Translations under genes and position numbers: made by a program
Part shown: piece by piece, positions 8,618 through 61,975 of the stretch
How positions within the stretch are numbered: the first letter of the stretch is position 1
How the letters are laid out: each line of letters starts with the position of its first letter
Notes under the pieces: model-generated
Database searches by the model: none
The model's input: the letters and a program-made list of their open reading frames with translations, nothing else
Told to the model about the DNA's origin: nothing
From: a virus
Taxonomy: Duplodnaviria; Caudoviricetes
Reading direction: 5' to 3' (one strand)
DNA length: 64,000 nt
Virus record (IMG/VR): IMGVR_UViG_3300014205_000170
Span: 384,001-448,000 of that record

Positions 8618-10960
8618 ATGAGCAAATCAATTAAAATCATCAAAAGAAACGGAACAAAAGAAGAACTAAATTATGATAAAATCAACAATGTATTGTTGTG
8701 GGCAACAGAGAACGTAAAAGGAGTAAGCGCATCAGATGTTGCAATGAATGCTAGATTGCAATTTACAGATGGGATTTCCACAGAAGATATACACAAAGTA
8801 TTAATTCAATCTGCTTGTAATTTAATTACAGAAGAAAATTCAAACTATCAATATGTTGCATCTAATCTTGCAAATTATTTATTAAGAAAACAAGTGTTTG
8901 GAGTACAAGATAATCTTCCTTCTGTATTTGATGTAATAAAGAAAAATATCAAATTAGGAATATATGATAAAATTATTTTAGAAAAATATTCAGAAGAAGA
9001 ATTAAATAAAATAAATAAATACATTAAACATCAACGTGATTTTAATTTTGCTTACGCAGGTATTCAACAAGTAATTGATAAGTATTTATTAAAAGATAGG
9101 TCAACAGGTAAATCATTTGAGACACCTCAATTTATGTATATGATGATTGCATTAACTATTTACATGAATTATGACCCAGAGCAAAGAATAAAATTCGTTA
9201 AAAGCTTTTATGATGATATTTCTTTGTTTAAAATAAATTTACCTACTCCTATTATGTCTGGAGTAAGAACTCCAAACAGACAATATTCTTCTTGTTGTTT
9301 AATTGATGTTGCAGATACATTACATTCTATATTTCATTCTAATTCTGCTGTAGGATATTATACAGCAAAACGTGCAGGCATTGGGTTGAACTTTGGTCGT
9401 ATTCGTTCTATTGGAGATAGAATCAGAAGTGGAGAAGTAATTCATACTGGTGTTATACCTTTCTTGAAAATGTTTGAAGCTACAACAAAAAGTTGTACTC
9501 AAAACGGAGTAAGAGGCGGTTCATCAACAACTCATTTTCCTTTTTGGCATAAAGAAATATCTGATATACTTGTTCTAAAAAACAATAAAGGTACTGATGA
9601 TAATCGTGTTCGTAAGATGGATTATTCAATTCAATTCAATAGATTGTTTTATAAAAGATTTGTTGAAGACAAAGAATTAACATTGTTCTCTCCTGGTGAT
9701 GTTCCGGATTTATATCAAGCTTTTTTTAAAACAAATGAAGAGTTTGAAGTTTTATATGAAAAATATGAAAATGATAAAAAAATAAAGACTAAGAAAATAA
9801 AAGCTAGAGATTTAATGAACTCTTTTGTTCAAGAAAGAATAGGTACTGGACGTATGTATGTTATGAATGTTGACCATGTTAACTCTCATAGTTCTTTTTT
9901 AGAATCAATTTACATGTCGAATTTGTGTCAAGAAATTACATTGCCAACTTATCCTATTAATCATATTGATGATACAGATGATAGTGAATCAGAAATTGCA
10001 TTATGTGTTTTATCTGCAATTAATTTAGGTGAATTTAAAGAATTTTCAGAATTAGAAAGTATTTGTGAGAACATTGTACGCTCTCTTGATTTTATTATTG
10101 AAAATCAGGATTATCCAGTAAGAGCTGCTTTAAAAATGTTGAAGCGTCGTTCTATTGGAGTTGGAATAACAAATCTTGCATATTTCTTTGCTAAGAATGA
10201 TGTGAAGTTTGATGATGAGAAAGCTTTATACTTATTGGATGAAGTAATGGAACATATTCAATATTATTTAATTAAAGCATCTGTAAAATTAGCCAAAGAA
10301 TTTGGACCATGTGAGTATTTTAATCGTACAAAATATAGTCAAGGCATTTTACCAATAGATACATACGCAAAAGCAGTTGATACAATTGTTAAAAGAAAAT
10401 ATACGCTTGACTGGGATGCGCTCCGTAAAGACGTAGTAGAATTTGGAATGAGAAACTCCACACTTACAGCTGTAATGCCGGCAGAAAGCTCTGCTGTTGT
10501 AACTAATGCTACAAATGGAATAGAACCACCTCGCGCTTTAGTATCTATTAAAAAATCGAAACAAGGTTTGTTAAAACAAGTGGTTCCGGAAATTGCTCGT
10601 TTAAAAAACAAATATACTTTAGCATATGATTTGCAGTCAAATAAAGGAATTACAAATGTTCAGGCTGTTATGCAAAAATGGGTTGACCAATCTTTAAGTT
10701 CAAATCATTATTACGATATCACAAAATATAAGGACCAAGAAATCCCAACTTCAATTTTAGCTCAAGATTTATTGTATGCTTACAAGATGGGTATCAAGAC
10801 GTTATACTATGCGAATACTAATGATAACAAAACTGACGATTATTCCCAACAAATCAAACATTCAATGGATGAAGGGGTAAAAAACTCTAAAGCGGAAGAA
10901 AAAGAAAGAATAGCCATACTTGAAGATAGCGGATGTGAATCTGGTGCTTGTTCAATCTAA
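8618..10960 (+). CDS. nrdA: Class Ia ribonucleotide reductase alpha subunit with ATP cone
   Basis: IIKRNG ATP cone; PTPIM; SSCCL; SNLCQEI; TLYY; C-terminal CESGACSI. Confidence 0.97.
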   Translation: MSKSIKIIKRNGTKEELNYDKINNVLLWATENVKGVSASDVAMNARLQFTDGISTEDIHKVLIQSACNLITEENSNYQYVASNLANYLLRKQVFGVQDNLPSVFDVIKKNIKLGIYDKIILEKYSEEELNKINKYIKHQRDFNFAYAGIQQVIDKYLLKDRSTGKSFETPQFMYMMIALTIYMNYDPEQRIKFVKSFYDDISLFKINLPTPIMSGVRTPNRQYSSCCLIDVADTLHSIFHSNSAVGYYTAKRAGIGLNFGRIRSIGDRIRSGEVIHTGVIPFLKMFEATTKSCTQNGVRGGSSTTHFPFWHKEISDILVLKNNKGTDDNRVRKMDYSIQFNRLFYKRFVEDKELTLFSPGDVPDLYQAFFKTNEEFEVLYEKYENDKKIKTKKIKARDLMNSFVQERIGTGRMYVMNVDHVNSHSSFLESIYMSNLCQEITLPTYPINHIDDTDDSESEIALCVLSAINLGEFKEFSELESICENIVRSLDFIIENQDYPVRAALKMLKRRSIGVGITNLAYFFAKNDVKFDDEKALYLLDEVMEHIQYYLIKASVKLAKEFGPCEYFNRTKYSQGILPIDTYAKAVDTIVKRKYTLDWDALRKDVVEFGMRNSTLTAVMPAESSAVVTNATNGIEPPRALVSIKKSKQGLLKQVVPEIARLKNKYTLAYDLQSNKGITNVQAVMQKWVDQSLSSNHYYDITKYKDQEIPTSILAQDLLYAYKMGIKTLYYANTNDNKTDDYSQQIKHSMDEGVKNSKAEEKERIAILEDSGCESGACSI

Positions 10961-10995: not shown

Positions 10996-12078
10996 ATGGG
11001 AGCAAACAAAAGTTTAATAAATCTACAACAGGTAGATTTTACAAAAGAACCTTTATTCTTCGGAAAAGGTCTTAATTTACAACGATATGATAAGTTCAGA
11101 TATGAACAGTTATTTGGTTTATTTAAACAACAATTAGGATTTTTTTGGAGACCAGAGGAAGTATCTTTGGCTGGTAAAGAAAAAACTGATTATGATAATC
11201 TCACTGAACATGAGAAATTTATTTTTACCAAAAATTTAAGTTATCAAATTTTGTTAGATTCTATACAGTCTCGCGGCATTTCTCACTTATTGGAAGATTG
11301 TTCTAATCCAGAATTAGAAGCTTTTGCGAAAACTTGGGAGTTTTTCGAAACATTACATTCATATTCTTACACTTATATTATTAAAAATGTTTATCCAGCT
11401 CCCAGCGATGTGTTTGATAATATTTTAAATGATGAAGAAATCATAAAAAGAACAGGCTCTGTTACTAAGTATTATGATAGTCTTATTGAAAACATTCCGG
11501 ATGATTCATTAGATAATAAAAAGAAAAAATTATACTTGACACTTGTGTCTATTAATATTTTAGAAGGTATTAGATTTTACGTTTCATTTGCTTGCTCTTA
11601 TTGTTTTGCTGAAAACAAAAAAATGGAAGGAAATGCTAAAATAATTTCTTTAATTAACAGAGATGAAAATTGTCATTTAGGCTTTACTCAAATTATTATA
11701 AATTTATTGCGTAAAAATACTGACGAAGGTTTTACACATATTGCAGAAGAATGTGAGCCTATTGTTATAAAGATGTTTGAGGATGCTGCTAAAGAAGAAA
11801 TAGAGTGGGCAAATTATTTGTTTAAAAATGGTGGCCTTTTAGGATTAAATGCTGAGATTTTAACTCAATACATGAAATGGTTAACCAATTTAAGAATGAA
11901 AGGTATTGGTTTAAATCCTATTTTTGAACGTGTAACCAACCCAATCAGTTGGATTAATAATTGGACTAATTCTAAAGGTGTCCAAAATGCACCTCAAGAA
12001 ACAGAAATAGAATCATATATAATTGGCTCATTTAAAAACGATATGGGAGATACTGATTTTAGCGAATTCAACTTTTAA
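10996..12078 (+). CDS. nrdB: Ribonucleotide reductase beta subunit
   Basis: FFWRPEE; LDSIQ; ETLHSYSY; EGIRFY; RDENCH; APQETEI.SY. Confidence 0.97.
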   Translation: MGANKSLINLQQVDFTKEPLFFGKGLNLQRYDKFRYEQLFGLFKQQLGFFWRPEEVSLAGKEKTDYDNLTEHEKFIFTKNLSYQILLDSIQSRGISHLLEDCSNPELEAFAKTWEFFETLHSYSYTYIIKNVYPAPSDVFDNILNDEEIIKRTGSVTKYYDSLIENIPDDSLDNKKKKLYLTLVSINILEGIRFYVSFACSYCFAENKKMEGNAKIISLINRDENCHLGFTQIIINLLRKNTDEGFTHIAEECEPIVIKMFEDAAKEEIEWANYLFKNGGLLGLNAEILTQYMKWLTNLRMKGIGLNPIFERVTNPISWINNWTNSKGVQNAPQETEIESYIIGSFKNDMGDTDFSEFNF

Positions 12079-14782: not shown

Positions 14783-15226
14783 ATGAGTAAACAGTCTTAT
14801 GTTTTAAGAAGAAAAAGTGTATTAATTGAAAAGTTTATTAATCACACAATATCTCTAAACAATACTGTAAGTCATCTCAATAATATTCCATTATTTTTCA
14901 ATATGGAATATCTTCGAAAAAATAAATTTATTGTCGAAATGAAAATAGATGATAAAATTGTGAATGCCGAGAGCATTCAGGGATTTAAAATTTCAAATTT
15001 TGAAAATGGAGAAAAGTCAATTAAGGTTCACACTGCTATCCATTTAGATACATGGTTAAACGATTATAATAAAGTCAATATTATTAAAATTTACTTATTA
15101 GATTCAATAGGAAGTGAACTTAGAGAGTTTGATTTAGATGTAATATACTTAGGATATTCATTTGATTGTGATTATAAAGAGGATGCTTTGGCCATTCCAA
15201 CTTTTACCTACAAAATAATAGAATAA
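14783..15226 (+). CDS. Divergent tail-tube-like paralog
   Basis: EYLRKNKFIV...LLDSIG...DCDY...TFTY resembles gp19-type tubes (EPkRkNRF...LDPvG...DlDY); N-terminal extension carries KSVLIEK. Confidence 0.45.
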   Translation: MSKQSYVLRRKSVLIEKFINHTISLNNTVSHLNNIPLFFNMEYLRKNKFIVEMKIDDKIVNAESIQGFKISNFENGEKSIKVHTAIHLDTWLNDYNKVNIIKIYLLDSIGSELREFDLDVIYLGYSFDCDYKEDALAIPTFTYKIIE

Positions 15227-28057: not shown

Positions 28058-29932
28058 ATGTCAGTAGAGATAAAAAAGCTTAGGACCAATTTTGAGGTCA
28101 GATTTCCTTTTAATAAGGCTTTAAACGAGTTTATTAAATCTCTTCCAAAGGACCAACAACAAACTAAAATGGATACCATTCAGCGAGAAAATGGTACCTT
28201 ATTTCAAGATTGGTACAAAGTAGTTAATGAGGCTGGACTATCTAAGATAATAGATTTTATCAAATGCAATAATTTAAAATTCAAGTTCACCAATATGGAA
28301 CCTGAAGATATTGAAAAATTAAAGCAAGAATTCAAACAAAGACAAAATAGAGGAGAAGAAGCATTAAAAGCCAGAGCTAAAGACTTAGATGTTTCTAAGT
28401 TTGAAATTCCAAACATGGCTCTACAACCATACGCCTATCAAAAACAAGCTGTAATGTTTTTCGAAAAAGCTGATGGTAAATGTATTTTAGGAGATTCACC
28501 GGGAGTTGGAAAAACATTAAGTGCTATTTCATATGCTGTAAAAAACAAACTTAAAACATTGATTGTATGTCCGGCTTCTTTAAAACTCAATTGGAGAAAT
28601 GAGATAGAAAAATTTACACACGAAAAAGCTTTCATATACAAATACAAACCAAAAAAGCGCTCTACCGAAAAAATATATACAAAAGAAGAAGCTTTGTTTC
28701 ATATAATTAACTATGAAGCATTAGAAACATTTGTAAAATTGAGCATATCTCATAAGTGTTCTTATGTACAATGTGGTTGGAAAGAAATCAATACGAAGAA
28801 AAAATATGACGAATGTCCTTCTTGTAAAAAGAAAAAAGCTATAAAATCCAGAGTTGTGGGTACAACTTTTCAAGATAAAGATGGTGTAAACCTAGACCCA
28901 AATGCATATGAATTGATTGTGTGCGATGAAGCTCATTATCTAAAGAACTCTAAGACAAACAGAACAAAGGTCATTAAAAAGGCTTTTATAGACGTTCAGA
29001 AGAAGATTTTACTAACCGGTACAGCAATTAAAAGTGTTCCGTTTGAATTCTTTTCTTTGTTGAATTTTATTGACCCTGCTGAATGGAAAAGTGCACATCA
29101 CTTTGGGGTTCGATATTGTGCTGGTTTTCAAGATGATTTTGGTTGGGATTATTCTGGTAGTTCAAACCTAGATGAATTATACCAAAGAATATCACCATAT
29201 TTCTTAAGACGCTTAAAATCAGATGTATTATCATTTCTTCCTCCAAAAACCTATACTCACATACCTATTGAATTAACAGCAGAAGAATTCAGAGAATATG
29301 CTAAAGTAGAAAAAGGGATTGTTGATGACACTGATGAAACTTCAAATGATGCAGACCACCTATCTAGAATTCAAAGACTTAAAATGTTTACATCTAAAGC
29401 TAAGGCTGAACGAGGTATTACTTTAATAGAAGATATTATTGCTGGAGATGAAAAAGTAGTGGTTTTTACAGAATACCTTTCCACTGCTGATAGAATAAAA
29501 GATTATTTTGGTGATAATGCTGTTTTATTTACAGGACAAAAAAACGTTTCCGAGAAACAAGAAGCTGTTGACCGATTTATGAAAGATGATTCGGTTAAGA
29601 TATTTGTTGGAACCATAGGAGCTGCCGGAGTAGGTATAACACTTACAATAGCCAGCATTGCAGTGTTTATAGACCAGCCATGGACACCGGCTGATAGAGA
29701 ACAAGCGGAGGATAGAATTCATAGAGCTTCCACAACTTCTGATAAAGTTCAAATAATAAGATTAATTTGTCAAGGAACAATTGACGAAGATATCGTATCT
29801 TTGTTACACAAAAAAGAAAAAACAACTTCTTTAGTATTAGATGCGGTCGTTGCTGATAAAAAAGTTCGCAGATTACAAGGAAGTATTTTTAGGGATTTAG
29901 TTACATTAATATTAGATAAAAAGAAGACATAA
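28058..29932 (+). CDS. SNF2/HARP-like helicase with inserted zinc ribbon
   Basis: GDSPGVGKT; CPASLK.NW; DEAH; LTGT; GVGITLT; QAEDRIHR; inserted CxxxxC...CxxC. Confidence 0.92.
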   Translation: MSVEIKKLRTNFEVRFPFNKALNEFIKSLPKDQQQTKMDTIQRENGTLFQDWYKVVNEAGLSKIIDFIKCNNLKFKFTNMEPEDIEKLKQEFKQRQNRGEEALKARAKDLDVSKFEIPNMALQPYAYQKQAVMFFEKADGKCILGDSPGVGKTLSAISYAVKNKLKTLIVCPASLKLNWRNEIEKFTHEKAFIYKYKPKKRSTEKIYTKEEALFHIINYEALETFVKLSISHKCSYVQCGWKEINTKKKYDECPSCKKKKAIKSRVVGTTFQDKDGVNLDPNAYELIVCDEAHYLKNSKTNRTKVIKKAFIDVQKKILLTGTAIKSVPFEFFSLLNFIDPAEWKSAHHFGVRYCAGFQDDFGWDYSGSSNLDELYQRISPYFLRRLKSDVLSFLPPKTYTHIPIELTAEEFREYAKVEKGIVDDTDETSNDADHLSRIQRLKMFTSKAKAERGITLIEDIIAGDEKVVVFTEYLSTADRIKDYFGDNAVLFTGQKNVSEKQEAVDRFMKDDSVKIFVGTIGAAGVGITLTIASIAVFIDQPWTPADREQAEDRIHRASTTSDKVQIIRLICQGTIDEDIVSLLHKKEKTTSLVLDAVVADKKVRRLQGSIFRDLVTLILDKKKT

Positions 29933-35686: not shown

Positions 35687-35717
35687 TTTGGATTTTAAAA
35701 AAATCTGCGTATATTTA
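35687..35717 (+). promoter_or_regulatory. Probable Bacteroidota sigma70-type promoter of leader 1 / tRNA array 1
   Basis: TTTG-N19-TATATTTA (last base deviates from consensus G). Confidence 0.5.
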
Positions 35718-35728
35718 CAAAATATAAC

Positions 35729-35818
35729 ATGAGAACAAATACGTCACATAACCATTTTAATAAATCGACTTTTAGTAATAAAAGCCGAATGGGTGTGCTT
35801 TGTGCTCTTGAAAGATAA
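35729..35818 (+). CDS. Attenuator leader peptide 1 (MRTNTSHNHFNKSTFSNKSRMGVLCALER)
   Basis: 15 of codons 3-19 are T/N/S/H/F, the amino acids of the downstream tRNAs; contains antiterminator strand GGGTGTG. Confidence 0.8.
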   Translation: MRTNTSHNHFNKSTFSNKSRMGVLCALER

Positions 35819-35902: not shown

Positions 35903-35975
35903 GGAGATGTAGCTCAGTTGGTAGAGCAAGGGACTGAAAATCCCTGTGTCAGCGGTTCGATTCCACTCATTTCCA
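35903..35975 (+). tRNA. tRNA-Phe(GAA)
   Basis: AGGGA-CTGAAAA-TCCCT; cloverleaf. Confidence 0.92.
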
Positions 35976-36008
35976 CAACGTTCGAATGGTACACGTTAAG
36001 TACCCCAT

Positions 36009-36081
36009 GGATACATAGCTCAGTGAGAAGAGCGCTCCGCTGAAGACGGAGAGGTCGGTAGTTCGATTCTACCTGTATCCA
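36009..36081 (+). tRNA. tRNA-Phe(GAA), second divergent copy
   Basis: CTCCG-CTGAAGA-CGGAG. Confidence 0.88.
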
Positions 36082-36090
36082 CAAATATCC

Positions 36091-36176
36091 GGAAGCTCCC
36101 AGTAGACAGAGGTACACCGTCTTGAAAACGGCTAGGGCAGTAAAATGCCGTGAGAGTTGGACTCTCTCAGTTTCCG
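36091..36176 (+). tRNA. tRNA-Ser(TGA), atypical D/T loops
   Basis: CCGT-CTTGAAA-ACGG; long variable arm; G73. Confidence 0.75.
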
Positions 36177-36207
36177 CAAAAAATTGTTCTTTGAAATGTA
36201 ATTTATT

Positions 36208-36292
36208 GGAGGTTTGACAGAGCGGTAATGTGCTTGTTTGCTAAACAACGGCTAGGATAACACCTACAGGGATTCGATTTCCTTAACCTCCG
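36208..36292 (+). tRNA. tRNA-Ser(GCT)
   Basis: TTGT-TTGCTAA-ACAA; long variable arm. Confidence 0.85.
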
Positions 36293-36301
36293 CAACAAAC
36301 T

Positions 36302-36386
36302 GGAAAAATGGCCGAGTGGTTTAAGGCGCACGCTTGGAAAGCGTGTAAACAGAAGTGTTTCGTGAGTTCGAATCTCGCTTTTTCCG
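36302..36386 (+). tRNA. tRNA-Ser(GGA)
   Basis: CACGC-TTGGAAA-GCGTG. Confidence 0.92.
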
Positions 36387-36402
36387 CACTAAAAAATAAA
36401 AA

Positions 36403-36708
36403 ATGAATAAATACGCAAGACTCCAACAAGAATTAAGTACAGTTGGAGAAGGTAAAATGAAAGGTTTTGGTAATTCAATGATGCCAATTATTAAATCCGG
36501 TTCGTTATTAACCTTTAAAAAAGCAGATGACTATGATATAGGTGATATAGTTTTCTGCAAAGTTAAAGGACGCTACATAGATGCACACAAGATTACAAAA
36601 AAAGATGCACAAGGTAGATGTATGATAGCAAACAATAAAGGATTTGAAAATGGATGGACTACACAAATTTTTGGAAAAGTAGTCGACATTGAAGAACCAA
36701 AAAAATAA
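36403..36708 (+). CDS. S24/S26 peptidase-like protein
   Basis: GNSMMPII.SG...GDIV...HKI. Confidence 0.65.
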   Translation: MNKYARLQQELSTVGEGKMKGFGNSMMPIIKSGSLLTFKKADDYDIGDIVFCKVKGRYIDAHKITKKDAQGRCMIANNKGFENGWTTQIFGKVVDIEEPKK

Positions 36709-36713
36709 ACACT

Positions 36714-36787
36714 GGGGGAGTAGCTATTAATGTTAGAGCGGTCCGTTGTTAGCGGAAGTGTTGGCGGTTCGAGTCCGTCCTCCCCCG
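36714..36787 (+). tRNA. tRNA-Asn(GTT)
   Basis: TCCG-TTGTTAG-CGGA; GGGGGAG/CTCCCCC acceptor; G73. Confidence 0.8.
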
Positions 36788-36792
36788 CAAAT

Positions 36793-36879
36793 TCTTGGGT
36801 TGCTTTAGTGGCCGAAAAGTCCAGACTGTTAATCTGGTGAGTTCATACTCCATCGCAGGTTCGACTCCTGCCCCAAGAG
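36793..36879 (+). tRNA. tRNA-Asn(GTT) with long variable arm
   Basis: CCAGA-CTGTTAA-TCTGG. Confidence 0.85.
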
Positions 36880-36884
36880 CAAAA

Positions 36885-36966
36885 CCATCTAAAAGATGAA
36901 AGTGGTTGTGTAGCTACTCATTTTTATCAGTTGGCAAACGAAGGTTCGAATCCTTCTTGGATGGGC
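36885..36966 (+). ncRNA. tRNA-like RNA (acceptor + T arm, no D/anticodon cloverleaf)
   Basis: CCATCTAA/TTGGATGG; GAAGG-TTCGAAT-CCTTC; one long internal hairpin. Confidence 0.5.
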
Positions 36967-37001
36967 GAAAGTTTAAATTTGTACTTTGAACAAGTTAACA
37001 T

Positions 37002-37088
37002 GGTAGATGTAACCGGTAATGGCAACCGACCAGTTTGTGGAACTGGAATGAAGAAATTCTAACGTGGGTTCAATTCCCATCTTCTACC
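37002..37088 (+). tRNA. tRNA-His(GTG) with encoded G-1 and long variable arm
   Basis: CCAGT-TTGTGGA-ACTGG; G-1/C73. Confidence 0.8.
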
Positions 37089-37105
37089 CAATAAAATTAA
37101 TTGTA

Positions 37106-37750
37106 ATGGAATTACAGATTGAAAAACAATCAAAAGGTGTGAGAATCATCTCAGGTCAAGAAGCAAAGAATAGAAGAAAGGTCTTGAACGATTTGATTAA
37201 ACTTGCAGAGGAAAAACAATATGAAGAAATAATTCTTCCTAGTGTTGAACCGCAAGCAATTTACACTGAAAAAGCAGGACAAGAAATTCTTGGACAAATG
37301 TATACGTTCAAAGATAAAGGTGAACGAGAAATTTGTTTAAGACCAGAAGGAACTGCAACGGTACAATTGATTGCAAATAAATATTGGAAGAACCAAAAAG
37401 ATGTGAAGTTGTGGTATTTTGAAAGATGTTGGAGATATGAGAGACCACAAGCAGGAAGATACAGAGAGTTTTTTCAATTTGGTGTTGAATGGATAAATCC
37501 AAGAAACATTGAAGAAGCAAAAAGAGAATTAATTGATTTGTCAAAAAATATGGTGAAGTTAGTAACTAACGAAATTGAAGTAAATGAAAGCGTAAAAAGA
37601 GGATTGAGTTATTACATCACAGAAGGTTTTGAAATTTCAATTCCATCTTTGGGAGCGCAGAAACAAGTTGTTGGTGGTGGGGCATATAAAGAAGGAATAG
37701 GATTTGCAGTAGGATTTGATAGAATGATGTTAAAATATAAGTTGCCATAG
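37106..37750 (+). CDS. hisS: Minimal histidyl-tRNA synthetase (class II catalytic core only)
   Basis: LRPEGTA; motif 2 RYERPQAGRYREFFQFGVE; RGLSYY; GGGAY; motif 3 GFAVGFDR; only 214 aa. Confidence 0.8.
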   Translation: MELQIEKQSKGVRIISGQEAKNRRKVLNDLIKLAEEKQYEEIILPSVEPQAIYTEKAGQEILGQMYTFKDKGEREICLRPEGTATVQLIANKYWKNQKDVKLWYFERCWRYERPQAGRYREFFQFGVEWINPRNIEEAKRELIDLSKNMVKLVTNEIEVNESVKRGLSYYITEGFEISIPSLGAQKQVVGGGAYKEGIGFAVGFDRMMLKYKLP

Positions 37751-37813
37751 TTCATTTGGAAGAACACTTCCTTGGTAAGGAAGAGGTGGACAGGTCGGAG
37801 CTGTCTGGCAACT
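37741..37813 (+). tRNA. tRNA-Thr(GGT), atypical T loop
   Basis: CTTCC-TTGGTAA-GGAAG; GTTGCCA/TGGCAAC acceptor; overlaps hisS stop. Confidence 0.7.
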
Positions 37814-37835
37814 ATAATAAATAAAAAAAAGTAAA

Positions 37836-38165
37836 ATGAAAACAACAGTAGAATTTAGACAGAAGTTTCTCACCGAACGGGATGAGAGTGGGCGTTTTAT
37901 TGTAACGTCGTACAGAACTGGTAAATTATATTTTGTTGAACCAATAGGTGGTGATAGACCAGCTGATTGGGGTTCGTATAATCCTAGTACTGGAAACATT
38001 GAAAATAAAAAAGGAACAGGAAAATTCAGAGGTTCAATTGATGAGAAAGATTCAATGATAACTAAAGAAAACGGTTTTGATGATATTCATTATGCCGGTA
38101 TTGGTGGTTCTCCATTTAGTAAAATCGATGAATTGGATGCGAAATATCCAAGTTTGAATAAATAA
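37836..38165 (+). CDS. Hypothetical protein
   Basis: 109-aa ORF between tRNA arrays. Confidence 0.65.
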   Translation: MKTTVEFRQKFLTERDESGRFIVTSYRTGKLYFVEPIGGDRPADWGSYNPSTGNIENKKGTGKFRGSIDEKDSMITKENGFDDIHYAGIGGSPFSKIDELDAKYPSLNK

Positions 38166-38197
38166 AAAAGTAATAACAAAAATAAAAAATAGAAATA

Positions 38198-38269
38198 ATG
38201 TTAGTAGTAGTAGCAATCGTAATAAAAAAGAAAAAGAAACCTTGGTCACAAGGGACGATTGCGTATTGA
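38198..38269 (+). CDS. Attenuator leader peptide 2 (MLVVVAIVIKKKKKPWSQGTIAY)
   Basis: AAA AAG AAA AAG AAA run immediately upstream of a terminator and five tRNA-Lys genes. Confidence 0.8.
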   Translation: MLVVVAIVIKKKKKPWSQGTIAY

Positions 38270-38325
38270 CTTTATTTTAATAAAGTTTCATAAGCCTGAG
38301 TCTCTTTGTAGATTCAGGCTTTTTT
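38213..38325 (+). promoter_or_regulatory. Attenuator 2 (1:2 / 2:3 / 3:4 hairpins)
   Basis: GCAATCGT/ACGATTGC and CCTTG/CAAGG (1:2); ACAAGGGAC with GTCTCTTTGT (2:3); terminator AAGCCTGAGTCT/AGATTCAGGCTT + T tract (38292-38325). Confidence 0.75.
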
Positions 38326-38328
38326 ATT

Positions 38329-38413
38329 GCACCTATGGCTCAATTGGTAGAGCAACCGGCTTTTAACCGGTGGGGTCCGTAAGGCGTTGAGGGTTCGAGT
38401 CCCTCTGGGTGCA
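38329..38413 (+). tRNA. tRNA-Lys(TTT) with long variable arm
   Basis: ACCGG-CTTTTAA-CCGGT. Confidence 0.85.
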
Positions 38414-38417
38414 CAAA

Positions 38418-38490
38418 CCTCTTGTAGCAAACTGGTTGTAGGCAATAGTCTTTTAAACTATGGGGCTTGGTTCGATTCCAAGCGGGAGGA
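38418..38490 (+). tRNA. tRNA-Lys(TTT)
   Basis: ATAGT-CTTTTAA-ACTAT. Confidence 0.8.
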
Positions 38491-38501
38491 CAACATAATT
38501 T

Positions 38502-38577
38502 CCATTCGTAGCAAAATTTGGTTTTTGCTCCTGACTTTTAATCAGAATAAAAGTGGGTTCGATTCCCACCGGATGGA
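38502..38577 (+). tRNA. tRNA-Lys(TTT)
   Basis: CTGA-CTTTTAA-TCAG. Confidence 0.8.
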
Positions 38578-38582
38578 CAAAT

Positions 38583-38656
38583 GCTTTCGTAGCTCAGTTG
38601 GTAGATGCATCTCACTTTTAATGAGAGGGTCGCAGGTTCGAGTCCTGCCGGGAGCA
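38583..38656 (+). tRNA. tRNA-Lys(TTT)
   Basis: TCTCA-CTTTTAA-TGAGA. Confidence 0.9.
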
Positions 38657-38677
38657 CTTATTAAAAAACAAAATACA

Positions 38678-38881
38678 ATGGAAGAATATTCATATTGGGA
38701 AATTTGGTACATTTCATGCGAAGGCAATGAAAGATGGACAACAGCAAGAGCTCCTATTGATTGGGAAGAATGGCAAGTTAGAGACCGAATACCCAGAGGT
38801 GGTTGTGGTGATGATGTATCCGAAGTAACATCAGTACACTCAACTTATGACGATGATTATTCGTGGGATTTTACAGAATAA
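38678..38881 (+). CDS. Small acidic Trp-rich hypothetical protein
   Basis: ATG after A-rich context; the longer track ORF overlaps tRNAs. Confidence 0.6.
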   Translation: MEEYSYWEIWYISCEGNERWTTARAPIDWEEWQVRDRIPRGGCGDDVSEVTSVHSTYDDDYSWDFTE

Positions 38882-38888
38882 CAACATT

Positions 38889-38961
38889 GCCTTCATAGCT
38901 TAATTGGTAGAGCTGCAGATTCTTACTCTGAGGGTTGGGGGTTCAAGTCCCTCTGGAGGCA
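38889..38961 (+). tRNA. tRNA-Lys(CTT)
   Basis: CAGA-TTCTTAC-TCTG. Confidence 0.85.
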
Positions 38962-39011
38962 CACTTATTAAAATAATGGTCTATTTATCATTACACTTAA
39001 AAACTATCAAA

Positions 39012-39203
39012 ATGATTTTAGAAGCTTATTGCCTTAAAACAAAACAAAAAGAAGTAATGGTTAATCCTGTAATACATAAAACTGCCAAAGGTGGTTATAT
39101 GGCAAAAGGAGAAAGCAAAGATGGACATAAAATGGCACTCATCCTTGGTAAGGAGAAAGCCGAAGCTGCTGCTGAGGCCGGAATCCCAAAAGAAGGTTGG
39201 TAA
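39012..39203 (+). CDS. DUF5679-like small protein
   Basis: AYCLK.K.K..M.NP...T..G...KG pattern. Confidence 0.55.
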   Translation: MILEAYCLKTKQKEVMVNPVIHKTAKGGYMAKGESKDGHKMALILGKEKAEAAAEAGIPKEGW

Positions 39204-39237
39204 CACAATTAAAGCTTGAGAAAAAACTCAAGCTTTT

Positions 39238-43345: not shown

Positions 43346-43410
43346 TGAATACATAAAACTTACGGAATTTAAAAATAACACACCCGGACTATAAAAAGTT
43401 CGGGTTTTTT
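43318..43410 (+). promoter_or_regulatory. Attenuator 3: antiterminator/terminator pair
   Basis: GGGTGTGTTA (43318-27) pairs perfectly with TAACACACCC (43376-85), which overlaps terminator ACCCGGACT/AGTTCGGGT + T tract. Confidence 0.85.
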
Positions 43411-43525
43411 ATTTTCCAAAAAATTAGTCAAGCAATGACTTAAAAGTTTGCAACGTTTTTTGACATATTGGTAACATTAAAAAGGTAATTAGGAATGGTT
43501 GTGAAATAATTCCTAATTACAAAAA

Positions 43526-44160: not shown

Positions 44161-44245
44161 ACACGGTTAGCCTAGTGGTCGATGGCATCAGTCTCCAAAA
44201 CTGACGAATTAAATTTCCGCGTGCGTTCGAATCGTACACCGTGTG
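44161..44245 (+). tRNA. tRNA-Trp(CCA) with long variable arm
   Basis: TCAGT-CTCCAAA-ACTGA; G73. Confidence 0.85.
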
Positions 44246-44257
44246 CAAAAACAAAAT

Positions 44258-45716: not shown

Positions 45717-45801
45717 GCCAATATCGCATAGTGGTCGATTGCACCTGATTTGTAATCAGGAACTGAATAAGACAGCGGCGGTTCGAATCCGTCTATTGGC
45801 T
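45717..45801 (+). tRNA. tRNA-Thr(TGT) with long variable arm
   Basis: CCTGA-TTTGTAA-TCAGG. Confidence 0.85.
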
Positions 45802-45803
45802 CA

Positions 45804-46874: not shown

Positions 46875-46970
46875 ACAGAAATAGTTCAGTTGGTAAAACA
46901 CCCGAATCCAAGGGACCAGACCAAGTATAAACAACTTGAAGATTCGCAGGTTCGATTCCTGCTTTCTGTT
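46875..46970 (+). ncRNA. tRNA-like RNA with remodelled anticodon region
   Basis: ACAGAAA/TTTCTGT; TAGTTCAGTTGGTA D arm; GCAGG-TTCGATT-CCTGC; no canonical anticodon arm. Confidence 0.55.
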
Positions 46971-61396: not shown

Positions 61397-61975
61397 ATGG
61401 ACAAAGATTTAGAATTAAAATTAAAAAACTCTACACCAATTTATCAAAGTATCGAAAAGTTTGAAGATGCAGATGAAGAAATGCTTTTTATCGCAAATCA
61501 TATCAAGCGTACAACACAACACAATGAATATATAGAACCAACAAGAATTAAGTTTTTATATTCAAATAAACCAAAAAAAGATGGAAGTAGCTATAGTCTC
61601 TTTGACCTTTTTAAGCGTAATGATATGGATAAAATGATTAATGATACTTATGATTTTATTTTAACTATATTTTATGATGTTTGGAAAGACCTTGCTCCAG
61701 ACCAAAAATTAATCATGTTAGACAAAGCTTTATGTGGTATAGATATGGGAAATATGGAAAATCAAAAGATTGGAAAAAACCCACCAGACTCAAAAGAATA
61801 TAAATCTAACATGCGTTTTTATGGTGCAGACAAAGTAATGAACACTTCTGATACTGTAGATTTGGCTTGTAGAAGAATTTTAGAAGAGAGAAAAGAGCAA
61901 CAAAAATTGGCTAAAGAAGCGGCTGGAGGTAAGAAAAAAGGCAAAAAGCATGCTGATGTAGCAGAAGATTTTTAA
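61397..61975 (+). CDS. Phage metallopeptidase-like protein, active site apparently degenerate
   Basis: DFILTI..DVW..L...QK..MLDKALC, where HExxH would be expected. Confidence 0.45.
   Translation: MDKDLELKLKNSTPIYQSIEKFEDADEEMLFIANHIKRTTQHNEYIEPTRIKFLYSNKPKKDGSSYSLFDLFKRNDMDKMINDTYDFILTIFYDVWKDLAPDQKLIMLDKALCGIDMGNMENQKIGKNPPDSKEYKSNMRFYGADKVMNTSDTVDLACRRILEERKEQQKLAKEAAGGKKKGKKHADVAEDF

Follow-up and report, generated by a model that had tools for sequence, protein, structure and literature searches.

In the genome of a phage with direct terminal repeats (518,809 bp, here G000) we have found a short lysine-coding leader that is very probably a ribosome-mediated attenuator of the trp/his type, which would sense the supply of Lys-tRNA, gate the tRNA-Lys genes located behind it and be nested in a larger attenuated operon. 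It lies in a stretch of 64,000 nt, bases 384001–448000 of that genome (IMG/VR record IMGVR_UViG_3300014205_000170), that we call the window; positions refer to its plus strand unless another record is named. An initial annotation, made by a model from the letters of the window, had already proposed a trp-like leader-peptide attenuator gating a tRNA-Lys array, and our analysis supports it with a compensatory change, an in-frame indel, a poly-Gln paralogue and statistics over 38 units. This reading is carried by the anatomy of the sequence, by its conservation in relatives, by covariation from unit to unit and by the correspondence of leader codons with tRNA cargo; leader translation, stalling, termination and read-through are the steps that we infer from them.

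The leader is an open reading frame (ORF) of 23 codons from ATG to TGA (38198–38269, TGA at 38267) that begins at the first ATG after a stop, in an A-rich upstream context lacking a Shine-Dalgarno (SD) motif, like that of the real genes of this phage. The alternating Lys codons noticed at the outset are there: five of them, AAA AAG AAA AAG AAA (38225–38239), make up the regulatory run. Around them the predicted hairpin 1:2 (38213–38262, −12.8 kcal/mol) consists of an 8-bp outer stem (38213–20:38255–62) and an inner 5-bp stem (38240–44:38249–53). Both had been described as flanking the run, which is true of the outer stem only. The models make hairpin 1:2 the anti-antiterminator, and a possible role as pause hairpin can be added. 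The 12-bp terminator expected just before the first tRNA is located 22 nt after the leader stop codon (38292–38328, −16.9 kcal/mol), with the stem and its 6-nt loop at 38292–38321 and the U-tract TTTTATT at 38322–38328; tRNA-Lys no. 1 starts at 38329, 7 nt after the stem. The alternative antiterminator (38248–38309, −16.2 kcal/mol) pairs 38248–56 with 38300–09, 38261–62 with 38294–95 and 38264–66 with 38290–92, enclosing an AU hairpin (38268–87), and the 2:3 duplex 38248–56:38300–09 contributes −7.4 kcal/mol. As modelled, the three structures are energetically balanced. The minimum free energy of the leader region has a z of −5.2, and none of 200 shuffled sequences was equally stable.

This arrangement of leader, terminator and tRNAs is not due to chance. 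The 519-kb genome contains 4,657 short ATG ORFs (12–60 amino acids, aa), only two of them with at least five consecutive Lys and one with at least five consecutive Gln, and the number expected in a given stranded window of 150 nt is 3e-4 for a Lys-run ORF and 1e-4 for a Gln-run ORF. One of the two Lys-run ORFs and the sole Gln-run ORF directly precede the Lys and the Gln tRNA arrays, with identical spacing. The Lys content of the whole peptide was discarded as a measure of rarity, not being rare among the short ORFs of this phage (P = 0.039), and the run statistic was used instead.

In the proposed mechanism, transcription would enter from upstream, most likely from a promoter before the first leader of the operon (leader 1), through a 109-aa ORF, and the 23 codons would be translated while being transcribed. 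With plentiful Lys-tRNA, the ribosome would reach the TGA at 38267 and cover about 38252–38282, including the 5′ strand of the antiterminator; the 12-bp terminator would then form and RNA polymerase would stop in the U-tract, at the 5′ end of the first tRNA. When charged Lys-tRNA is scarce, the ribosome would stall on the AAA/AAG run, occupy the 5′ arm of hairpin 1:2 and leave 38248–38266 free to pair with 38290–38309, i.e., with the 5′ arm and loop of the terminator, allowing read-through into four tRNA-Lys(UUU) genes, two small ORFs and tRNA-Lys(CUU). In a leader that is not translated, hairpin 1:2 would form and lead to termination. The result would be a homeostatic loop in which scarcity of a tRNA induces the genes of that same tRNA, whether the scarcity comes from a heavy AAA demand, from loss of host tRNA during infection or from an anticodon nuclease.

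The in silico folds of partial transcripts ending in the terminator loop, which replaced equilibrium folds, behave in this way. When the footprint of a ribosome on Lys codon 1 or 3 is masked, the complete antiterminator forms; when the ribosome is at the stop codon, it cannot; and in transcripts free of ribosomes hairpin 1:2 is the first to appear. In these folds, a ribosome on the Lys run leaves the antiterminator, which cannot coexist with the terminator, free to form, and one at the stop blocks it. The 2:3 pairing of the initial annotation accordingly exists and appears in these folds, while only its core is conserved in relatives.

Conservation of the leader and related units

We used the 109-aa ORF located upstream of the leader as an anchor to find relatives, and obtained the syntenic IMG/VR contig G002 (locus L003) and a number of metagenome loci. 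A homologous Lys leader is present in six related contigs (G002/L003 and L040, L041, L044, L051 and L054), followed by three or four tRNA-Lys(UUU) genes and one tRNA-Lys(CUU). Scans for leader homologues with exact patterns gave G002 alone among viral contigs and none among genome contigs. The segment from leader to terminator is 92.7% identical to that of the window in G002 and 82.3% in L040, compared with a nucleotide identity of 76.1% in both for the adjacent protein gene, i.e., the leader is more conserved than the gene that flanks it. The terminator stem is invariant in the six homologues and the variation is confined to its loop (alignment A1). In the outer stem of hairpin 1:2 100% of the cells of the alignment are paired, with one compensatory replacement of A-U by U-A. 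The sole indel inside the leader ORF is of 3 nt and preserves the frame, and all four substitutions in the leader ORF of G002 fall at unpaired positions. The core of the antiterminator, GGGAC:GUCUC (about 5–7 bp), and two GC pairs (GC:GC) are also invariant. The Lys tRNAs, on the other hand, have been reshuffled between relatives, with identities to the window copies of at most 84%, and the order and composition of the array differ between G000 and G002 despite the 93% conservation of the leader.

A twin of this unit is found in the same genome. The Gln leader (G000 346435–346515) has seven Gln codons, both CAA and CAG, and precedes three tRNA-Gln(UUG) genes and one tRNA-Gln(CUG). In both units the distance from stop to terminator is 22 nt and from stem to tRNA 7 nt, the TGA stop lies within TTGAC, and the terminator arms match (AAGCCUG...CAGGCUU); the 5′ arm of the Lys terminator recurs moreover in a Thr/Ile/Val unit of the metagenome locus L063. 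With these shared features, the independent origin that had been suggested for the Lys unit is unlikely, and modular duplication is more probable. Lys and Gln are the only single-amino-acid units of this genome. The same logic is seen in a second family of Lys leaders that is unrelated to this one (L043, L047, L050 and L058) and in another Gln leader (L049).

To put these cases in a wider frame we collected all units in which an ATG ORF of 12–60 aa ended at most 70 nt before a terminator that was in turn at most 250 nt from the head of a tRNA array. There were five in the phage's own genome, 15 when relatives were included and 36 in metagenome loci, together 38 distinct leaders. Sister leaders list up to 12 amino acids matching the tRNA set located downstream. 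Over the 38 units, the agreement between leader residues and downstream tRNA identities had a z of 9.9 and was reached by none of 100,000 permutations (p≤1e-5); on average a leader contained 95% of the cargo identities of its own unit, whereas the leaders of other units contained 68% of them. The residue-match test on the set of 15 units gave p≤5e-6. Besides, the last 42 nt of each leader pair better with the 5′ arm of the cognate terminator (−12.1 kcal/mol) than with non-cognate arms (−7.3 kcal/mol), the cognate arm ranking first in 16 of the 38 units (p≤1e-5) and third of 38 for the Lys unit. Since the terminators differ between units, these matching antiterminator strands amount to covariation across units. 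The distance from stop to terminator is 18–31 nt in 33/38 units. From these sequences, the Lys element would belong to a widespread and apparently undescribed mode of phage tRNA-supply control.

One relative departs from the pattern. In the 353-kb G007 we searched for an ATG leader at the Lys array near locus coordinate 64884 and recognised none, and at 61700–61880 of the G007 part (L033 region) a TAnnTTTG box and a terminator precede Pro, Gln, Tyr, Thr, Gly and Lys tRNAs, with a matching frame that has no ATG. This last unit may use a non-canonical start or a leaderless mRNA.

We have found similar units in a cultured phage, Cellulophaga phage phi4:1 (NC_021788.1, 146 kb). There are three, at 9066–9187, 9990–10161 and 11772–11920 of the locus analyzed (L119, NC_021788.1 78000–100000), i.e., 87065–87186, 87989–88160 and 89771–89919 of the record. 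The first has a 22-codon leader with its own TAnnTTTG box, preceded by the terminator of the upstream gene, and a terminator located 9 nt before tRNA-Pro. Up to the next leader, its cargo is tRNA Pro, Glu, Gln, His, Leu, Leu and Arg, and 11 of the 13 residues that follow Met in the leader are those six amino acids, the other two being Lys and Ile. The second leader corresponds to the annotated hypothetical protein gp075, lacks an ATG and precedes tRNAs for Ala, Lys, Ile, Gly, Met, Asp, Thr, Val and Arg, and the third precedes those for Tyr, Ser, Asn, Trp and Phe. By their sequence, the phi4:1 units extend the device beyond huge phages, and together with Cellulophaga baltica this phage is a cultured phage–host pair in which the idea is directly testable.

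Weighing the attenuator against other explanations

Several of our results speak against an attenuator. The terminator was kept in every equilibrium fold with a ribosome mask, so that the element can only work as a kinetic switch, for which such an outcome is expected. Its antiterminator belongs to the weaker ones and leaves CUGA of the terminator 5′ arm unpaired, and the L040 group lacks the outer four pairs of the 2:3 helix. The Lys leader family amounts to three distinct sequence types with one compensatory pair, and in the shuffle control 22 of 500 alignments reached the observed score for percent paired and covariation, and 276 of 500 had at least as many pairs with both sides changed as the real alignment. 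Taken alone, covariation in the Lys leader family is weak. Directly upstream of the leader there is no promoter and the model relies on read-through from upstream genes. Coupling of transcription and translation, finally, is assumed for a host that can only be described as probably Bacteroidetes-like. We have weighed four other explanations with these points in mind.

The best of them takes counter-defence as the main purpose of the attenuator: an anticodon nuclease (PrrC-, PARIS/AriB-, Cas13- or Schlafen-like) would cut the host tRNA-Lys(UUU), and the stall would switch on variants that escape it. Several data fit. The four UUU copies have four different anticodon stems with canonical loops, and the array differs between G000 and G002 beside a conserved leader, suggesting a fast turnover of the tRNAs. 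The single-amino-acid units are precisely those for Lys and Gln, whose tRNAs both carry xm5s2U34, a base targeted by several anticodon nucleases, and the phage has four Gln genes for 3.4% of its codons. There is also a precedent, and the initial annotation was correct in naming tRNA-Lys as a target of PARIS AriB: AriB cleaves the host tRNA-Lys, and a tRNA-Lys of phage T5 with an altered anticodon stem neutralises PARIS and rescues the infection (PMC11464382). However, the divergence of the Lys genes is not peculiar to them, as duplicates with the same anticodon are 53–85% identical all over the genome (Phe, Asn, Val, Ile, Asp, Ala, Gln, Met and Lys), and the same gating is seen at arrays for nearly every amino acid. 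AAA makes up 7.8% of the codons, and UUU genes outnumber CUU genes 4:1, in parallel with the 5:1 excess of AAA over AAG. Nuclease resistance is, besides, not readable from sequence. The equal divergence of duplicates, the location of 46 of 48 tRNAs behind units and the abundance of AAA are explained by supply on demand, without PrrC or PARIS. We therefore regard counter-defence as an unlikely main purpose, and for the same reasons the dedicated cassette of nuclease-resistant variants proposed at the beginning is not specifically supported. A broader picture, which we offer as speculation with a rather low chance of being right, is that Bacteroidetes phages from the 146-kb phi4:1 to the 500-kb huge phages would share a codon-indexed tRNA-on-demand regulon, the amino acids of each array being spelled by the leader on which the ribosome stalls, with Lys and Gln modules that would sense the loss of host tRNA to anticodon nucleases and express escape variants.

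It is very unlikely that there is no regulation at all, i.e., that the hairpin does no more than end the 109-aa ORF, that the A-rich run is a spacer in which an untranslated ORF occurs by chance, and that a separate promoter serves the Lys tRNAs. A-runs are common in a genome with 30% of guanine plus cytosine, and a sigma-70-like match, TTGACT-N17-CATAAG (TATAAG in G002), is located between the leader stop and the terminator; transcripts from it would start inside the terminator 5′ arm. We rejected this promoter on the length of its spacer in relatives: the 17 nt are reduced to about 12 in the L040 group, with the local hairpin kept. The motif is also absent from the other units, the genes of this phage are of the Bacteroidetes type (SD-less, with TAnnTTTG boxes) and not of the sigma-70 type, and the 7 nt between the terminator stem and the tRNA leave no room for a promoter. 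A chance ORF in a spacer is hard to reconcile with a leader more conserved than its flanking gene, with the in-frame indel and the stem compensation within the ORF, or with Lys-run and Gln-run ORFs that number two and one genome-wide, one of each before its cognate array; the poly-Gln twin cannot be an A-rich spacer.

We give even less credit to a switch made of RNA only, or mediated by a protein, in which the ORF would be untranslated, for example a T-box-like element with AAA/AAG pairing to the anticodon and UGGU (38243–46) to the uncharged ACCA end. The Lys codons do lie within the large loop of hairpin 1:2 and a UGGN motif is found 3′ of them, but UGGU becomes UGGC in the L040 group, and the Rfam models of the T-box and the lysine riboswitch had no match in the Lys element even at E≤10, the best sub-threshold hits being generic leader or terminator RNAs. 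On the other side, relatives have preserved the ATG, the frame and the position of the stop, with an indel whose length is a multiple of three, sister leaders with 5–12 amino acids are readable by a ribosome alone, and the distance from stop to terminator is fixed at 18–31 nt. Least credible of all is a functional peptide (hydrophobic N-terminus, basic centre) whose position before the tRNAs would be incidental: its outline is conserved across the three sequence types, but each of the three amino-acid differences from G002, and three among those from L040, comes from a non-synonymous change at an unpaired position while paired nucleotides and Lys codons are kept, its conserved Ala-Ile-Val and Thr-Ile-Ala are the two arms of stem 1:2, and such a peptide would explain neither the Gln twin nor the agreement of leader codons with cargo.

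Cargo, operon and genome context

The cargo agrees with the five divergent tRNA-Lys genes, four UUU and one CUU, of the initial annotation. They are tRNA-Lys(UUU) no. 1 (38329–38414, 86 nt with a long variable arm, 65.5 bits with Rfam), no. 2 (38418–38491, 46.3 bits), no. 3 (38502–38578, 52.8 bits) and no. 4 (38583–38657, 60.9 bits), and tRNA-Lys(CUU) (38889–38962, 62.6 bits), with pairwise identities of 52–73%, Rfam scores of 46–66 bits overall and, among the four UUU copies, a different anticodon stem in each. A 67-aa ORF without a match in Pfam (38678–38881) lies within the cargo, and the unit ends with a 63-aa ORF (39012–39203) that has a weak, sub-threshold match to DUF5679. A bidirectional terminator (39211–39236) closes the operon, with convergent genes beyond. 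In G002 the ortholog of the UUU tRNA at 38502–38578 is a CUU tRNA (G002 15142–15217, 84% identical), i.e., the anticodon has switched. The first Lys tRNAs of G000 and G002 have CGTAAG in common in their variable arms and are only 51% identical overall. Long variable arms (tRNAs of 86–88 nt) appear here in identities that are normally class I: Lys (38329–38414), Asn (36793–36880), His (37003–37089), Trp (44161–44246) and Thr (45717–45802).

The operon that holds the Lys attenuator likely starts at a promoter-like motif of the Bacteroidetes type (TTG-N19-TAnnTTTA, 35688–35717), one of only four plus-strand matches in genome positions 419000–432000; among these matches there was no box between attenuator 1 and the Lys leader. 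The motif precedes leader 1 (35729–35818), the first-tier attenuator ORF of the same operon, in which residues 3–19 are all Thr, Asn, Ser, His, Phe or Lys, including two Lys codons, and these six amino acids are the full tRNA content of 35903–38962. Its homologues in G002 and L039 have substitutions that remain within the same set. As leader 1 covers the tRNAs of this region, Lys included, the Lys unit is most likely a second-tier internal attenuator of one operon ending at 39211–39236. The Gln unit is internal too, with a GlnRS/GluRS-type gene after it. Between the two tiers, the conserved 109-aa ORF (37836–38165) ends 32 nt before the ATG of the Lys leader. The terminator scan gave no terminator between them, and the ORF is probably co-transcribed with the leader. 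It had no match in Pfam and none in Atlas, and homologues with 42–86% aa identity were found in 9 viral and about 80–88 metagenome loci, many of them with tRNA arrays, so its function might be related to tRNA.

The window contains 32 tRNA genes, all on the plus strand, for which ARAGORN and Rfam agree. In the whole genome ARAGORN made 52 calls, 48 of them tRNAs with an assigned identity in two big arrays and two singletons; 46 of these 48 are located in the two arrays, behind five leader–terminator units. AAA represents 7.8% of all phage codons and is five times as frequent as AAG, and Gln codons represent 3.4%, yet there are four tRNA-Gln genes. The closest database relatives are uncultured huge phages and Cellulophaga phages. 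Among sequencing runs, the region was traced to the probable source DNA run (a landfill metagenome) and, with a small share, to a freshwater run, and to no RNA run. Only 5% of the long ORFs have an SD-like motif, their upstream regions are A-rich, and TTG-N19-TAnnTTTG boxes precede some of the leader–terminator units. The SD-less genes, A-rich upstream regions and TAnnTTTG boxes point to a host of the Bacteroidetes type.

Other features were noticed along the way. A 96-nt tRNA at 46875–46970 matches Rfam with 41.8 bits and was missed by ARAGORN, and an uncalled tRNA-like sequence with a CGT anticodon loop (G000 343990–344075) lies 3′ of the terminator of a Leu/Arg/Glu leader. Directly after tRNA-His there is a truncated HisRS-like protein of 214 aa (37106–37750) with the class-II core only (PF13393, PF00587); before a class-II synthetase gene at G000 152620–153555 we searched for a leader and found none. 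The spacer from the leader 3 terminator to the first tRNA (43406–43525) contains a conserved TTTGACATATTGGTAA box together with a hairpin, as does G001 (minus strand, oriented 66113–66178), and this element could be a second promoter or a processing signal. A tRNA with the anticodon UUA, which reads the stop TAA, is present in two relatives (G005 29213–29305; G007 part, locus coordinate 44241) and was not found in the genome of the window. This hints at stop-codon suppression or recoding in part of the phage group.

Comparison with known attenuators

If the attenuator operates as proposed, the tRNAs of these phages would not be constitutive supplements. The phage would gauge the host pool codon by codon and top it up only when short, which bears on why phages keep large tRNA sets, on when these are expressed along the infection and on the response to immunity that targets tRNAs. 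The leaders would also allow annotation of tRNA regulons and inference of the codons that limit translation in uncultured phages from the sequence alone, and they are compact, modular parts for codon-specific sensors.

Leader-peptide attenuation is textbook knowledge for amino-acid biosynthesis and for a few synthetase genes, and we found no report of it for tRNA genes in the open-access full texts of PMC and bioRxiv. The closest models are the his and trp attenuators of Enterobacteria (hisL, trpL). They share with the proposed Lys attenuator a short ORF that is translated and contains consecutive regulatory codons (hisL has seven His codons in a row), hairpins 1:2, 2:3 and 3:4 of which 3:4 is the intrinsic terminator, a stall that leads to read-through, and a stop codon placed so that the finishing ribosome blocks strand 2. 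Unlike them, the Lys element has as cargo tRNA genes instead of biosynthesis enzymes, and therefore the adaptive signal would be the supply of tRNA and not that of the amino acid. It is also encoded by a phage, in an SD-less, Bacteroidetes-like context, and lies within an operon whose first tier is another attenuator.

To our knowledge, T-boxes do not gate tRNA genes, nor is the tRNA-Lys of phage T5 gated by a codon-sensing leader. T-box riboswitches resemble the phage element in sensing the status of a tRNA through competition between antiterminator and terminator, whereas the latter has no T-box motif or Rfam match and its sensor would be the translating ribosome. The T5 gene is similar in being a phage-encoded tRNA-Lys with an anticodon stem unlike typical host sequences (PMC11464382). 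In the pheST operon of Escherichia coli (pheM leader) and the predicted attenuators of aminoacyl-tRNA synthetases, a component of the translation apparatus is controlled by its cognate charged tRNA, and in the phage genome a GlnRS/GluRS-type gene comes after the Gln twin; in the phage, however, the tRNA genes themselves are the cargo. The leaders of ilvGMEDA and ilvBN (Ile, Val, Leu) sample several amino acids at once, as the sister units of the phage do, but the latter list up to 12, and the Lys unit senses one. The class of mechanism is thus known, and what is new is the tRNA cargo, the phage setting, the nested design and the leaders that work as catalogues.

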